DNA of 31,974 nt from Sphingomonadales bacterium (GTDB lineage: Bacteria; Pseudomonadota; Alphaproteobacteria; Sphingomonadales; SMXR01), in NCBI GenBank assembly GCA_036445535.1, contig JAZFRG010000042.1, positions 1 through 31,974 of the forward strand. Reading direction: 5' to 3'. Below are positions 3,276-23,458 of the stretch, piece after piece. Numbering within the stretch: the stretch's first letter is position 1; each line of letters opens with the position of its first letter. The position numbers were made by a program, and so were the translations under genes. The notes under the pieces are model-generated. The model had not been told where the DNA came from. It was given only the letters and a program-made list of their open reading frames with translations, and ran no database searches.

Positions 3276-3311
3276 AGAAAGACCGTGAGTATCTCGCGGT
3301 CTTTTTTTTTA
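3276..3311 (+). terminator. Rho-independent terminator after mucR
   Basis: AAAGACCGTGAG-TAT-CTCGCGGTCTTT stem with one G-U pair, followed by a T run. Confidence 0.85.
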
Positions 3312-3314
3312 CTT

Positions 3315-3343
3315 TTGTGCGGCCCTGTGAAATATGCTAGGCG
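3315..3343 (+). promoter_or_regulatory. Candidate sigma70 promoter for fur
   Basis: TTGTGC-N17-TAGGCG, 38 nt upstream of ATG 3381. Confidence 0.35.
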
Positions 3344-3380
3344 AAAGACGTCGAAAAACCCCAAACCTAGGGACAGGAAA

Positions 3381-3839
3381 ATGACCAAAGGTTCTAAACC
3401 CGAAGACCAGGGACAAAATCTCAGTGATATTGAGCGGGTATGTTTAGAAAAAGGCATGCGCATGACCGACCAACGCCGAGTGATTGCCAGGGTGCTTTCC
3501 AATTCCAAGGACCATCCTGATGTGGAGGAAGTTTATTCCCGCTCCACCGCTGCCGATAGCCGGATTAGTATCGCCACGGTTTACCGGACGGTTAGACTTT
3601 TTGAGGAAGCGGGTATTCTTGAGCGCCACGATTTTCGCGATGGCCGCTCCCGGTATGAACTCATAACCGAAAACCACCATGATCACCTGATTGATCTTGA
3701 TAGCGGGGAAGTGGTGGAGTTTCAAAACCTGGAGATTGAGAAGCTGCAGGAAGAAATTGCTAAAAAACTGGGCTACCGTTTAGTGGACCACCGCATGGAA
3801 CTTTACGCGGTTCCGTTAGTTCGGACTAAAAAATCTTGA
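3381..3839 (+). CDS. fur: Fur family metalloregulator (Fur/Mur)
   Basis: GMRMTDQRRVI, DHPDVEEVY, ISIATVYRTVRLFEEAG and HHDHLID motifs. Start moved to ATG 3381 (SD GGACAGGA). Confidence 0.93.
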   Translation: MTKGSKPEDQGQNLSDIERVCLEKGMRMTDQRRVIARVLSNSKDHPDVEEVYSRSTAADSRISIATVYRTVRLFEEAGILERHDFRDGRSRYELITENHHDHLIDLDSGEVVEFQNLEIEKLQEEIAKKLGYRLVDHRMELYAVPLVRTKKS

Positions 3840-18466: not shown

Positions 18467-18539
18467 TCTGTTTTCCGGGAATGAGCCCGGTTAGCCCGAT
18501 GTTTAATTTGATCGCACCTAAGTGCAAACAAAAAAACAC

Positions 18540-20684
18540 ATGTTTAATATTCATAAAAAAGAAATAACCTGGGATGGCAGGCCGCTCACAATTGAGACCG
18601 GTCGTATAGCCCGCCAGGCCGACGCCGCGGTTCTAGTAACCTACGGTGAAACAGTAGTCCTGGCGACCGTCGTTGCTGCTAGGAAATCAAATCCGGAGTT
18701 GGATTTTTTCCCACTTACGGTCCACTATGTAGAAAAAACCTATGCCGCAGGGAAAATTCCTGGTGGCTTTTTTAAACGCGAAGGGCGCCCTTCCGAAAAG
18801 GAAACTTTAACCAGCCGTCTTATTGACCGCCCGGTTCGCCCCCTTTTCCCGGGAAGCTTTAAAAACGATACCCAAATTATCTGTACCGTTTTATCCCACG
18901 ACATGGAAAACGATCCGGATATTGTAGCGCTTATTGGGGCAAGTGCCGCCTTAACGCTTTCCGGCATCCCCTTCCTTGGCCCCATTGGCGCCGCCCGCGT
19001 TGGGTACAAGGATGGCAAATATTTAATCAACCCAAAACCTGAGGATTTGGAGGGCAGCGAACTTGATCTTATTGTCGCTGGCACCAAGGACGCGGTTTTA
19101 ATGGTCGAATCCGAAGCCCAGGAACTCTCTGAAGAGGTAATGCTGGGTGCTGTGATGCACGGCCATAAGGAAATGCAGCCAGTGATCGACATGATCATTG
19201 ATCTGGCCGAAGATTGTGCCAAAGATCCTTGGGATCTCGCGGAAGAAAAAGATTTATCCGAGCTTAAAGGCAAAATTGCCAAAATGGCCGAAAAAGATCT
19301 CCGGGCAGCTTATAAGATCACCGAAAAGCAAGACCGTACCAACGCTATTAGTGAGGTCCGCACCAAGGTTAAGGAAGCCTTTGCTGAGGATGAAGCCGTT
19401 GAAGACCGTGAAATTTCAGATCTTTTGAAAAAACTTGAAAAAGATATCGTCCGCGGTGATATTTTGAAAACCAAAAAGCGTATTGATGGTCGTAAACTTG
19501 ATCAGGTTCGCCCAATCGTTGGCGAAGTTGGTGTTCTTGAGCGCGCTCACGGCAGTGCGCTTTTCACCCGCGGTGAAACCCAAGCGCTGGTTGTGGCTAC
19601 CCTTGGAACCGGTGATGATGAACAATTTATCGATGCCCTAACCGGCACCTACAAGGAAAAATTCCTGCTTCATTATAACTTCCCGCCTTATTCAGTTGGT
19701 GAAACCGGCAGGTTCGGCTTTACCAGCAGACGCGAAATTGGTCACGGCAAGTTGGCTTGGCGCGCTGTTCGTGCAGTTTTACCCAGCCATGAAGATTTCC
19801 CCTACACCGTCCGGATCGTTTCTGAAATTACCGAATCGAACGGCTCCTCCTCAATGGCAAGTGTTTGCGGTGCTTCCTTGTCCATGATGGATGCCGGGGT
19901 TCCGATCACCCGGCCAGTTTCCGGTATTGCCATGGGCCTTATTAAAGAAGGCAAGGACTTTGCTGTTCTGTCAGACATCCTGGGCGATGAGGATCACCTG
20001 GGTGACATGGACTTTAAGGTTGCCGGTTCTGAAAAAGGAATCACCTCCTTGCAGATGGACATCAAAATCACTGGGATTACTGAAGATATCATGGAACAGG
20101 CTCTGCAACAGTCCAAGGCCGGTCGCGATCATATTTTGGGTGAAATGAATAAAGCCCTGAAAACCGCCCGCGAAGATGTCAGTACCCATGCCCCCCGGAT
20201 TGAAACCATTCAGGTTCCAAAAGACAAAATCCGTGAGGTTATTGGTACCGGCGGCAAGGTTATCCGTGAAATTGTTGAAACCACGGGTGCCAAGGTTGAT
20301 ATCGATGACGATGGTACGATTAAAATCGCCAGTTCCGATATGGAAGCCATCGAGGCGGCCAAAAAATGGATCATCGGGATTACCGCTGAGCCTGAGCTGG
20401 GTGAGCTTTATGACGGCAAGGTCGTCAAGGTTGCGGACTTCGGTGCGTTCGTAAACTTCTTCGGTGCCAGAGATGGTTTGGTGCACATCAGCGAGATGTC
20501 ATCCGAGCGCGTTGAGAAGGTTTCCGACGTTGTTAAAGAAGGCGATCAAGTTAAAGTTCGGGTTCTAGAAATTGACGACAGAGGAAAAGTCAGGCTTACT
20601 ATGCGGGTAGAGGAAGATCGCCCGATAGGTTCCCGCCCCAAAGGGGGTAAACCTGGTGGCGGTCGCGGGCCGAAACGGAACTAG
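18540..20684 (+). CDS. pnp: Polyribonucleotide nucleotidyltransferase
   Basis: [48 protein letters not shown], then KH and S1 domains. Start moved to ATG 18540. Confidence 0.98.
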
Positions 20685-20698
20685 GGTTTGGACCCTAG
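20682..20698. repeat. 17-nt stop-codon-anchored palindrome, copy 1
   Basis: TAGGGTTTGGACCCTAG starts at the pnp stop and is 15/17 identical to 22131-22147. Confidence 0.6.
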
Positions 20699-20735
20699 GG
20701 TTTCAACCCTTAAGGAAAAAAAGAGGTAACTCCGC

Positions 20736-22133
20736 TTGAAAACATTAAACGCTATAAAAATGGGTGGCCGAGAGGTCCTTCCCCTCGTTGAAGGGGGAAA
20801 GGGTATTTCGATTACCAGCGGGGCCTCTGCCGGGCCTTGGGCCTATGCCGGTGGCGTAGGTACTGTTTCTGCTGTTAATGCTGACAGTTATGACAAACAG
20901 GGCAACCTGATCGAGCAAATCTTCAAAGGCCGAACCCGCAAGGAACGCCACGAAGAACTGGTCGATTTTGGCATTATGGGGGGGGTTTACCAGGTTAAGG
21001 AAGCCCACGAACTTCGCCAAAACCAGGGCGCTCTTAATATCAATATCCTTTGGGAAATGGGCGGTGCCGAGCGCATATTAAAGGGCGTTTTGGACAAAAC
21101 CAAGGGCCTTGTTAATGGCGTTACCTGCGGCGCCGGTATGCCCTACAAGCTGGCGGAAATCGCCGCCTCTTATGGGGTTTATTATTATCCGATCATTTCA
21201 TCGGCGCGCGCTTTCCGGGCGCTGTGGAAGCGGGCTTATATTAGATTTGCTTCCTTTCTTGGTGCCGTGGTTTACGAGGACCCCTGGTTGGCCGGTGGCC
21301 ATAACGGGTTATCGAACAGCGAAGACCCACTGGTGCCCCAAGACCCCTACCCGCGTGTGGTTGAACTGAGGCGGATGATGCGCGAAATGAATTGTCCTGA
21401 GGTTCCCATTATTATGGCCGGGGGCGTTTGGTATTTAAGGGATTGGTCTGATTGGGTCGACAATGACGAGTTGGGGCCAATTGCTTTCCAGTTTGGCACC
21501 CGTGCCTTGTTGACCAAGGAAAGCCCTATTTCCGAAGAATGGAAACGCGCATTGCTGACCCTGAAGGAAGGCGATGTTGTTTTACATCGTTACAGCCCAA
21601 CCGGTTTTTATTCTTCCGCCGTAAACAACAAATTTTTGCAGGACCTGCATGCCCGGTCAGATCGGCAAATCGCCTTTACCCCGGATCGCGTTGGCGATCA
21701 CAACAGTCCGCTGGACATCAATGGCAAGGGCAACGTTTTATATGTCACCCAGGGTGATTTTTCCCGGGCCAGAAAATGGCTGCACCAGGGCTTCACCACG
21801 GTAATGCGGACCCCGGACCAGACACTGATTTTTGTCACCCCGGAAAACCGCGATCAGATCAGAAAAGACCAGATCGAATGCATGGGCTGCTTGTCCCAGT
21901 GCCGGTTTTCAAATTGGGCGGATAACGAAAAAAATTCGACCGGGCGCAAGGCCGACCCCAGAAGTTTCTGTATTCAGAAAACGCTGATGAAAATTTCCCA
22001 TAATGGCAGTTTGGAAAACAACCTGATGTTCTCAGGCCATAACTGTTACAATTTTGCCAAAGACCCGTTTTATTCCAACGGTTTTATCCCCAGGGTCGGC
22101 CAATTGGTTGAACGCCTGCAAACTGGCGATTAG
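20736..22133 (+). CDS. Nitronate monooxygenase-family flavin oxidoreductase, FabX/UfaA-like with four-Cys cluster
   Basis: EGGKG, GAGMP, PIISSARA, AGGHNG (H189), PIIMAGG, FGTR and SPTG motifs; Cys382/385/389/412; TTG start with SD GAGGT. Confidence 0.85.
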   Translation: MKTLNAIKMGGREVLPLVEGGKGISITSGASAGPWAYAGGVGTVSAVNADSYDKQGNLIEQIFKGRTRKERHEELVDFGIMGGVYQVKEAHELRQNQGALNINILWEMGGAERILKGVLDKTKGLVNGVTCGAGMPYKLAEIAASYGVYYYPIISSARAFRALWKRAYIRFASFLGAVVYEDPWLAGGHNGLSNSEDPLVPQDPYPRVVELRRMMREMNCPEVPIIMAGGVWYLRDWSDWVDNDELGPIAFQFGTRALLTKESPISEEWKRALLTLKEGDVVLHRYSPTGFYSSAVNNKFLQDLHARSDRQIAFTPDRVGDHNSPLDINGKGNVLYVTQGDFSRARKWLHQGFTTVMRTPDQTLIFVTPENRDQIRKDQIECMGCLSQCRFSNWADNEKNSTGRKADPRSFCIQKTLMKISHNGSLENNLMFSGHNCYNFAKDPFYSNGFIPRVGQLVERLQTGD

Positions 22134-22147
22134 GGTCTGGGCCCTAG
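22131..22147. repeat. 17-nt palindrome, copy 2, spanning two convergent stop codons
   Basis: TAGGGTCTGGGCCCTAG: the left TAG ends the oxidoreductase and the right CTA (22144-22146) is the stop of the SH3 gene. Confidence 0.6.
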
Positions 22148-22656
22148 TCGAAAACTTCACCAAAATAAGTGCCCCAAAGCCCCTCGGTGTTAATCCAGCC
22201 TTCTTCCGGGCCGACATCAATTTGGCACCAGGTTTCATTGCACTCAATAATTTCGCCGATCACCCCGGCCTCAACCCGGGCCACAGGCTGGGAAGTAACA
22301 TCCGGTTTTTCAAAAAGAATGCGCATGCCCCCAGTGATCAGCCCGGTTCGTTTTCCCGATAAAAGGACCACATGAATCCAGCCCTCCTCGCCCTCAAGGT
22401 CTCTGACTTTTCGCCATTGTTCGTATTCTTCAATAATCTCTAAAGGATATAATTTTTTTTCATAAACCCACATGATCGGGTATTGCTCCCCGGGCCCGGT
22501 TCTTAAGTTGGCCCGGTCGGCAGAAATTGAAACAAAGCGCGGCAACGGCAGGCCACTTTCGCCAAAGCTCACCTCACCCCGCTCAAGCGGGGCAGAAACC
22601 GCAGGTCCGGCGCTGGCAAGAGCAAACATTCCAAGGATTATGAGAAAACGTTTCAT
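22144..22656 (-). CDS. Secreted tandem SH3 (SH3_4-like) domain protein
   Basis: Signal peptide; PLPRFVS, NLRTGPG.QYP, WRKVRD..G..GW and a second repeat WC......GW. Confidence 0.88.
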   Translation of the reverse strand: MKRFLIILGMFALASAGPAVSAPLERGEVSFGESGLPLPRFVSISADRANLRTGPGEQYPIMWVYEKKLYPLEIIEEYEQWRKVRDLEGEEGWIHVVLLSGKRTGLITGGMRILFEKPDVTSQPVARVEAGVIGEIIECNETWCQIDVGPEEGWINTEGLWGTYFGEVFD

Positions 22657-22687
22657 ACTTTATTCCTGACAAAAGTTGGGGTTAGGG

Positions 22688-23458
22688 TCAAGCCCCCGAA
22701 CAACATGGACACGCTGGGTCTTTGGGCAGTTTGATGGTCTTAAAGGTGGCATCCAGGCCATTATAAAGCATTAATTTTCCAGCAAGGCTATCGCCAATAC
22801 CTAAAATTTCCTTGATTACCTCTGTGGCCTGAAGCGTTCCCATGACGCCGGCAATGGTTCCTAAAATGCCGACCTCGGCACAGGTTTGCCCTTCTATTTG
22901 GGGGGCTTGTGGCACCAGGCACTGGTAACAGGGCAGGGGGTTGCCATCGGGTCCAATATCATCGGGCCTGAAGGTGGCCAGCTGACCATCAAATTTCATC
23001 AGGGCCGCCGAAACCAGCGGAACCTTTTCCTTAAAACAGGCGGCATTTACCGCCAACCTGGTTTCAAAATTATCGCAGCCATCGGCGACGATGTCGTAGT
23101 CTTTAATAAGGGCCGGGGCGTTTTCTTCGGTAAGTCTGATTTGGTGAAGAATAATTTTGGTATCGGGGTTAATTTTCAGGAGGGCTTCTTTGGCGCTTAG
23201 CGTTTTGGCTTGGCCAATGTTTTCAGAGGAATGGATGATCTGTCGCTGCAAGTTAGAAAGGCTGACCCCATCATCATCAACAATGCCAATGGTGCCCACC
23301 CCGGCAGCGGCCAGATACATTAAAACCGGAGAGCCAAGACCCCCGGCACCAATCACCAGAACCCTGGATTTAAGAAGTTTCTTTTGCCCGGGGCCGCCAA
23401 TTTCTTTTAAAATTATATGGCGGGCATAACGGTCTAGTTGGTTATCATCCAGGGTCAT
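22688..23458 (-). CDS. moeB: MoeB/ThiF family adenylyltransferase
   Basis: [33 protein letters not shown] and CYQC/CPCC zinc motifs; ATGA overlap with dut. Confidence 0.9.

Follow-up and report, generated by a model that had tools for sequence, protein, structure and literature searches.

In a 31,974-nucleotide (nt) contig of a Sphingomonadales bacterium (GenBank assembly GCA_036445535.1, contig JAZFRG010000042.1; hereafter, the window), the gene that directly follows pnp encodes a 465-residue relative of FabX, the unsaturated-fatty-acid enzyme of Helicobacter pylori. With a probability of about 0.8, we consider this gene to supply the unsaturated-fatty-acid enzyme of its lineage, a long-form, FabX-type acyl-acyl carrier protein (ACP) dehydrogenase-isomerase that uses flavin mononucleotide (FMN) and a [4Fe-4S] cluster. 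We class its product as a separate, long-form branch within the FabX type, which most likely takes the place of FabA and FabB in the sphingomonad lineage as well as across most Alphaproteobacteria and the Zetaproteobacteria. The computational observations behind this are homology, the predicted fold, conserved residues, exclusion of FabA/FabB and a common chromosomal slot; our confidence in the details of the chemistry and in the electron acceptor is lower than in the role. Non-orthologous displacement of FabA/FabB by a FabX-like enzyme had been proposed in a sequence-only reading of the window, and this proposal is supported by homology, fold, exclusion and slot, having withstood each of the tests that were run.

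Textbook accounts have proteobacteria making unsaturated fatty acids via FabA and FabB, and FabX is commonly treated as a Helicobacter-restricted oddity and a narrow drug target. If our assessment is correct, over half of the sampled alphaproteobacterial species would make their unsaturated fatty acids mainly with a FabX-type enzyme, covering sphingomonads, Rhodospirillales-like groups and Rickettsiales-type reduced genomes, together with the zetaproteobacterial iron oxidisers, and thousands of "nitronate monooxygenase" annotations would be wrong. The gene would also represent a clean natural case in which non-orthologous genes displace one another while the chromosomal slot stays fixed. Sphingomonas and Novosphingobium would offer a tractable system for finding which electron acceptor enzymes of this class use in the cell.

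Relationship to H. pylori FabX in sequence, fold and residues

H. pylori FabX (HP0773; PDB 7E1Q, 7E1R, 7E1S and 9LT5) is a decanoyl-ACP dehydrogenase and trans-2-to-cis-3 isomerase carrying FMN and a [4Fe-4S] cluster (Zhou et al. 2021, PMC8626469). Among all PDB sequences it was the nearest to the window protein, with a phmmer E-value of 8e-24 from the single sequence, and when a profile built from 18 family members was searched against the same sequences, FabX was matched at E 3.4e-31 and only FabX chains fell below E 0.001. Pfam recognises the nitronate monooxygenase (NMO) family alone in the protein (PF03060, 42 bits against a cut-off of 28), and the ESM Atlas yielded only clusters of the same family along with weak feature matches resembling fatty acid synthase (FAS). 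A search of representative sequences returned mainly fragments of the same family.

An AlphaFold (AF2) model predicted from the family alignment, with a predicted local distance difference test (pLDDT) score of 89.6 and a predicted template modelling (pTM) score of 0.89, placed the protein closest to FabX as well. The top five Foldseek matches were all FabX (E ~1e-21), followed by FabK at 1e-13, and structural superposition with VIA-align gave Z 39.0 for FabX at a root-mean-square deviation of 2.9 Å, compared with Z 30 over ~300 residues for FabK and Z 24–29 for ordinary nitronate monooxygenases. Since 354 of 366 FabX residues were aligned over model residues 1–464, the match spans the C-terminal Fe-S subdomain and not the barrel alone. 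Identity to FabX is 28–29% in the structural alignment and about a third over the barrel by sequence.

To compare functional residues, we took the roles of FabX residues from the published structural work (PMC8626469), obtained their equivalents from HMMER alignments and scored conservation over 18 relatives, down to 39% identity. The residues that contact FMN in FabX (N99, E175, Q240 and T243) correspond to N103, E181, Q252 and T255, which are invariant apart from T255, kept in 17 of the 18, and the catalytic base H182 corresponds to the invariant H189. Invariant equivalents were likewise found for the phosphopantetheine contacts (I147, S149, G184 and Y277, equivalent to I153, S155, G191 and F291) and for the acyl tunnel (L101, I321, L325 and F339, equivalent to L105, I413, L417 and F432), while the basic residues that dock ACP (K152, K159, R160 and R164) are matched by R158, K165, R166 and R/K170, conserved with few exceptions in the most divergent members. 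The position of FabX T130 is occupied by Y137, and in the GGxG loop the sphingomonad protein has K22 where FabX has M24.

The FabX cluster is bound by C300, C304, C308 and C320, in a subdomain that takes the place of the NAD(P)H site (PMC8626469). Of these, C320 aligns with the invariant C412 of the window protein, and C382, C385 and C389 precede C412 at short range, in the arrangement that C300, C304 and C308 have relative to C320. When a natural 413-residue short form from Hydrogenophaga was aligned to the protein with MAFFT, C385, C389 and C412 shared columns with cysteines of the short form, and the first cysteine was shifted. The protein has seven cysteines overall, and the four in the pattern C382-x2-C385-x3-C389-x22-C412 are invariant in all 18 relatives; we propose these four as the [4Fe-4S] ligands. 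The expectation that the cysteines would align with the FabX ligands was thus upheld through C412 and through a structural alignment that takes in the Fe-S subdomain, with the first cysteine out of register.

Checked on the translation, the motifs listed in the sequence-only reading were all found where it had placed them: EGGKG (residues 19–23), GAGMP (132–136), PIISSARAFRALWKR (152–166), AGGHNG with His189 (186–191), IMAGG (226–230), SPTG (287–290) and LMFSGHN (430–436), as was the cysteine pattern. In its residues and predicted fold, the protein shares with FabX an NMO-type barrel with its FMN contacts, a catalytic histidine in a GGH motif, a basic ACP-docking helix, phosphopantetheine contacts, tunnel residues and a four-cysteine C-terminal subdomain replacing the NAD(P)H site, the set of features that marks the FabX type.

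The most obvious difference from FabX is length, with 465 residues against 363. Most of these 102 additional residues are accounted for by an insert of ~60–70 residues (~316–381) ahead of the cysteine cluster, which had initially been put at about 90 residues, a figure that our alignments with FabX and the short form did not bear out; the insert is absent from both of these. A further ~11 residues lie in the loop between the third and fourth cysteines, which has 22 residues compared to 11 in FabX. Within the whole model, the insert was predicted with high confidence as a compact alpha/beta unit. When modelled residues 300–400 (pLDDT 77.7) were compared on their own with 48,161 PDB representatives, no convincing relative was detected, the best match being an unrelated type IV secretion system protein at Z 5.5; this does not prove that the fold is new.

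Mutual exclusion with FabA/FabB at a common chromosomal slot

The source genome is a metagenome-assembled genome (MAG) of 1.98 Mb in 385 contigs, estimated as 85.9% complete; its GTDB order also contains Sphingomonas and Qipengyuania, which places it in Sphingomonadales. FabA and FabB were not found in this 86%-complete MAG. Its sole gene of the FabA/FabZ fold is FabZ (197 bits on TIGR01750, 29 bits on the FabA model), and its sole full β-ketoacyl-ACP synthase (KAS) I/II is FabF (626 bits), situated in a fabG-acpP-fabF-mltG cluster. FabG, ACP and FabI are also present, FabI being spread over two contig ends (C355:1-504 and C362:2-430) that match overlapping model ranges (93–260 and 2–144) and are probably pieces of one gene broken by assembly. 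Neither FabA nor FabB was found in two further genomes of this order that are 100% complete, in agreement with the absence predicted for the source genome, and the combination of FabF and FabZ with neither FabA nor FabB is a trait shared with H. pylori. The MAG contains a second NMO-family gene (C170; L005:185-1219), an ordinary NMO/FabK-like gene for 344 residues that scores 288 bits against the FabK cut-off of 453 and is devoid of the cysteine cluster.

We then examined 401 alphaproteobacterial genomes, one per species (orthologue at E ≤ 1e-20, FabA at E ≤ 1e-30, FabB at E ≤ 1e-150), and 201 Pseudomonadota genomes, Zetaproteobacteria included (homologue at E ≤ 1e-15). In the class sample, 234 genomes carry the orthologue and 142 carry FabA, none carries both and 25 carry neither; in the phylum sample the corresponding numbers are 114, 73, 0 and 14. 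FabB was detected in 139 of the 401 genomes, every one of them FabA-positive. The question of whether homologues co-occur freely with fabA, on which the displacement hypothesis had been staked, is thus answered by zero overlap in both samples. The class tallies include two unpublished orthologue-positive genomes (G040 and G240), without which the count is 232 of 399, and no claim depends on them.

Nearly all orthologues in the class sample are full length at ~57–68% identity, the few weaker or partial matches coming from genomes that are small or incomplete. Genomes of just 0.6–1.4 Mb also retain the gene. Identity of 57–68% across two classes has the character of a housekeeping gene. The 114 homologues of the phylum sample comprise 62 long forms and 52 short forms, the latter ~24–37% identical; short forms from other Pseudomonadota, such as the 413-residue Hydrogenophaga protein (~30% identical), do not have the insert. 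Close homologues occur, among others, in Iodidimonas, Rhodothalassium, Sphingomonas, Sphingobium, Novosphingobium, Erythrobacter, Caenispirillum, Zavarzinia, Desertibaculum and in Rickettsiales MAGs. The long form was found in Alpha- and Zetaproteobacteria, whereas FabX belongs to Campylobacterota. Database labels of the named homologues read nitronate monooxygenase or NAD(P)H flavin oxidoreductase in all cases.

The long form, at about 60% identity, is present in 46 of the 47 genomes of family f220, which is Mariprofundus, a zetaproteobacterium; an identification of f220 as Neisseriaceae, which would have equated the long form with UfaA of that family, was considered and rejected on this ground. 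Long-form genes at 61–64% identity were also seen on contigs (L045, L102) that had been placed in MAGs of Bdellovibrionales and Marinomonas, which could reflect mis-binning or lateral transfer. One family member of 476 residues (P0137) has tryptophan at many family-invariant glycine positions (for example GGKW and AWWH), which is the look of an organism with TGA=Gly (code 25) read with TGA=Trp, so the long form may extend to Gracilibacteria or Absconditabacteria-type bacteria.

Turning to genomic context, the annotated order in two FabA-positive alphaproteobacterial loci (L104 and L105) is pnp> <fabI <fabB <fabA irr>, and fabA lies 2–7 kb downstream of pnp in four of five complete FabA-positive genomes. 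In the window, the FabX-like gene alone occupies the interval between pnp and an SH3-domain gene. Both the pnp-fabI-fabB-fabA-irr interval and the pnp-to-SH3 synteny are therefore matched by real loci, L104 and L105 on the one hand and the window on the other. Across 80 named loci of the long form, pnp directly precedes it on the same strand in 34, mostly at a distance of 70–540 nt, the SH3 gene lies downstream in 30, and Irr (IrrA equivalog, 186 bits) directly follows it on the same strand in 25 (for example L028:7503-7946).

Families that contain both systems are informative about this site. Both occur in three of the ~200 families of the class sample (f8, f78 and f113) and in one more family of the phylum sample (f228). 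In f8, the position directly after pnp holds fabB-fabA with room for fabI in one genome (G006) and long FabX in another (G191), and the same is true of f78 (G371 and G076, respectively). Because mixed families swap them there, long FabX and fabI-fabB-fabA are alternative occupants of a single site, with pnp as one border and irr often as the other. At the window locus, irr is absent from the slot (22134–22700) and the source genome has no Irr equivalog, its only related gene being a Fur-like one at window positions 3285–3839. In 10 loci rubrerythrin comes after irr, which hints weakly at peroxide handling in the vicinity; neither gene is found at the window locus.

Proposed reaction and competing explanations

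By analogy with H. pylori FabX, decanoyl-ACP from the ordinary FabF/FabG/FabZ/FabI cycle would dock on the basic helix (residues 156–170) and thread its acyl chain into a tunnel running between FMN and His189 and ending at the Fe-S cluster. His189 and FMN would strip two hydrogens to give trans-2-decenoyl-ACP, which would be isomerised within the same tunnel to cis-3-decenoyl-ACP and elongated by FabF towards unsaturated fatty acids of the cis-vaccenate type, while the cluster held by C382, C385, C389 and C412 would relay electrons from FMN to some acceptor. Substrate, products, cofactors and acceptor are all proposed on this model. The anticipated product, cis-3-decenoyl-ACP that is then elongated, would be the same as that of FabA/FabB, a 3-hydroxydecanoyl-ACP dehydratase-isomerase with KAS I that occupies the same pnp-irr place in alphaproteobacteria; fold and chemistry are unrelated, with a hot-dog dehydratase in one case and a flavin/Fe-S dehydrogenase in the other, and the two were never found together in 602 genome searches over the two samples.

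Several observations weigh against assigning the FabX role to the long form. The 86% completeness of the MAG limits the absence of fabA and fabB in it, and the same genome carries a membrane gene of the FA_desaturase family (C380; L011:1-966, minus strand; 101 bits), truncated by a contig end and named by no NCBIfam model, which could encode either a desaturase that works aerobically or some other di-iron hydroxylase. A desaturase could supply some unsaturated fatty acids aerobically; such a route has no bearing on the role of the FabX-like gene. The cysteines are spaced CX2CX3CX22C in the long form compared to CX3CX3CX11C in FabX, and the first three were matched by position and structural alignment, outside any significant sequence alignment. 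An insert of ~65 residues also sits beside the cluster. At 28–29%, identity falls below the ≥ 50% to HP0773 by which FabX homologues were delimited (Zhou et al. 2021), and for this reason we class the long form as a distinct branch and not as a FabX orthologue in the sense of those authors. As relatives are not independent and mixed families are few, the zero overlap with FabA reflects a modest number of independent replacements. Lastly, the literature that we searched contained no biochemical or genetic test of any long-form member.

The most credible alternative, although still an unlikely one, is an acyl-ACP enzyme with a partial or shifted version of the FabX activity, performing dehydrogenation only, with FabZ or another protein as isomerase, or acting at another chain length. 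Identity to FabX of ~28–29% leaves room for such a change, and the end of the acyl tunnel, where FabX gauges chain length, is adjoined by the insert and by the extended loop that links the third cysteine to the fourth. Set against this, the tunnel residues are invariant and match those of FabX, and no second gene of the FabZ/FabA fold was found in the genome to act as an isomerase.

We regard as improbable an enzyme working in the reductive direction, either a FabK-like enoyl-ACP reductase or a trans-acting enoyl reductase of a polyketide or polyunsaturated fatty acid synthase. FabK, PfaD and trans-acyltransferase (trans-AT) enoyl reductases belong to the same superfamily and have the triosephosphate isomerase (TIM) barrel and catalytic histidine in common with the window protein, and FabK, PfaD and FAS enoyl-reductase domains are its structural neighbours (Z 25–30, compared to 39 for FabX). 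However, a cysteine cluster is missing from those enzymes, which are NAD(P)H binders, whereas the C-terminal part of the window protein matches the FabX Fe-S subdomain, located where FabK has its NAD(P)H site. The match to the FabK model TIGR03151 is weak, at 32 bits far under the equivalog cut-off of 453. Moreover, FabI is present in the source genome and elsewhere in all five other long-form genomes tested, so the protein is not a FabI substitute, and an enoyl reductase would leave the exclusion of FabA/FabB unexplained.

Least probable is that the protein acts outside lipid synthesis, as its database label of nitronate monooxygenase or as a general NAD(P)H-flavin oxidoreductase, and that the FabA pattern reflects phylogeny only. 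The label on all named homologues speaks for this, as does the fact that the trait is fixed in most families, such that shared ancestry explains much of the FabA pattern. Against it, ordinary nitronate monooxygenases are structurally farther away and not among the significant sequence matches (FabX and FabK only), the ACP-docking and phosphopantetheine contacts are conserved, replacement occurs at the identical slot within two families, and a detoxifying enzyme is not expected at 57–68% identity over two classes or in 0.6-Mb genomes.

Returning to the FabX-type dehydrogenase-isomerase, the electron acceptor is O2 in vitro for the H. pylori enzyme. Neisseria gonorrhoeae UfaA (NGO1024), an NMO-family FabX homologue, is reported to be needed for anaerobic synthesis of unsaturated fatty acids, with its acceptor unidentified (PMC11300592). 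Its likeness to the window protein, as an NMO-family protein in a host without FabA, is taken from that report. As a tentative conjecture, the conserved insert and longer cluster loop might suit electron transfer from the [4Fe-4S] cluster to a cellular acceptor that is not O2, for example a quinone, ferredoxin or electron-transfer flavoprotein (ETF); long FabX might then represent the ancestral way in which Alpha- and Zetaproteobacteria make unsaturated fatty acids independently of O2, displaced in situ by FabA-FabB-FabI at the pnp-irr slot several times, and the acceptor problem of Neisseria UfaA might be covered in the same way. The literature searched showed no link between FabX and Alphaproteobacteria, although Isabella & Clark 2011 and Bi et al. 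2016 lay outside the search and an earlier mention of homologues is possible; a Zymomonas CRISPR interference (CRISPRi) paper does not mention the gene.

Gene start, upstream hairpin and neighbouring genes

The window is a housekeeping stretch, with the order nfuA, nitroreductase, tsaB, fur, miaB, phoH, corC, lnt, metK, nusA, infB, rbfA, truB, rpsO, pnp and the FabX-like gene, met on the opposite strand by the convergent SH3-domain gene, moeB, dut, coaBC, ubiB and ubiE. Features in and around the gene are listed below.

Features of the FabX-like gene and its borders in the window
Feature	Positions	Strand	Remarks
pnp (polynucleotide phosphorylase)	18522..20684	+	TIGR03591, 1078 bits; upstream border of the slot
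Perfect 7-bp hairpin (CTAGGGT...ACCCTAG)	20681..20698		Overlaps the pnp stop codon, in a 51-nt pnp-to-gene gap; pattern match only
Ribosome-binding site AAGAGG	20721..20726	+	9 nt before the TTG; read from sequence
Gene for long FabX-like flavo/Fe-S protein (P0001)	20736..22133	+	465 aa, TTG start, stop included, frame open throughout
PIISSARAFRALWKR, residues 152–166	21189..21233	+	Counterpart, by alignment to FabX, of the FabX strand and helix alpha7 (phosphopantetheine arm, ACP docking)
His189 codon	21300..21302	+	Counterpart of FabX catalytic base His182 in the GGH motif; 18/18 relatives
Inserted alpha/beta subdomain, residues ~311–381	21666..21878	+	Gap in FabX and in the Hydrogenophaga short form
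CMGCLSQC (Cys382, Cys385, Cys389)	21879..21902	+	Proposed [4Fe-4S] ligands; 18/18 relatives
Cys412 codon	21969..21971	+	Proposed fourth ligand, equivalent to FabX Cys320 by HMMER alignments; invariant; followed by I413 and L417
SH3-domain gene	22144..22656	-	PF06347, 97.5 bits; convergent, downstream border of the slot

An alternative start exists at an ATG in codon 9, from which one database carries the protein; no AAGAGG-type site lies in front of it. Residues 1–8 are conserved among homologues, and for this reason we favour the TTG. A promoter scan of the interval between pnp and the gene found none. Processing at hairpins is a known property of pnp transcripts, so the hairpin at the pnp stop codon may be an attenuator or a processing point ahead of the FabX-like gene.

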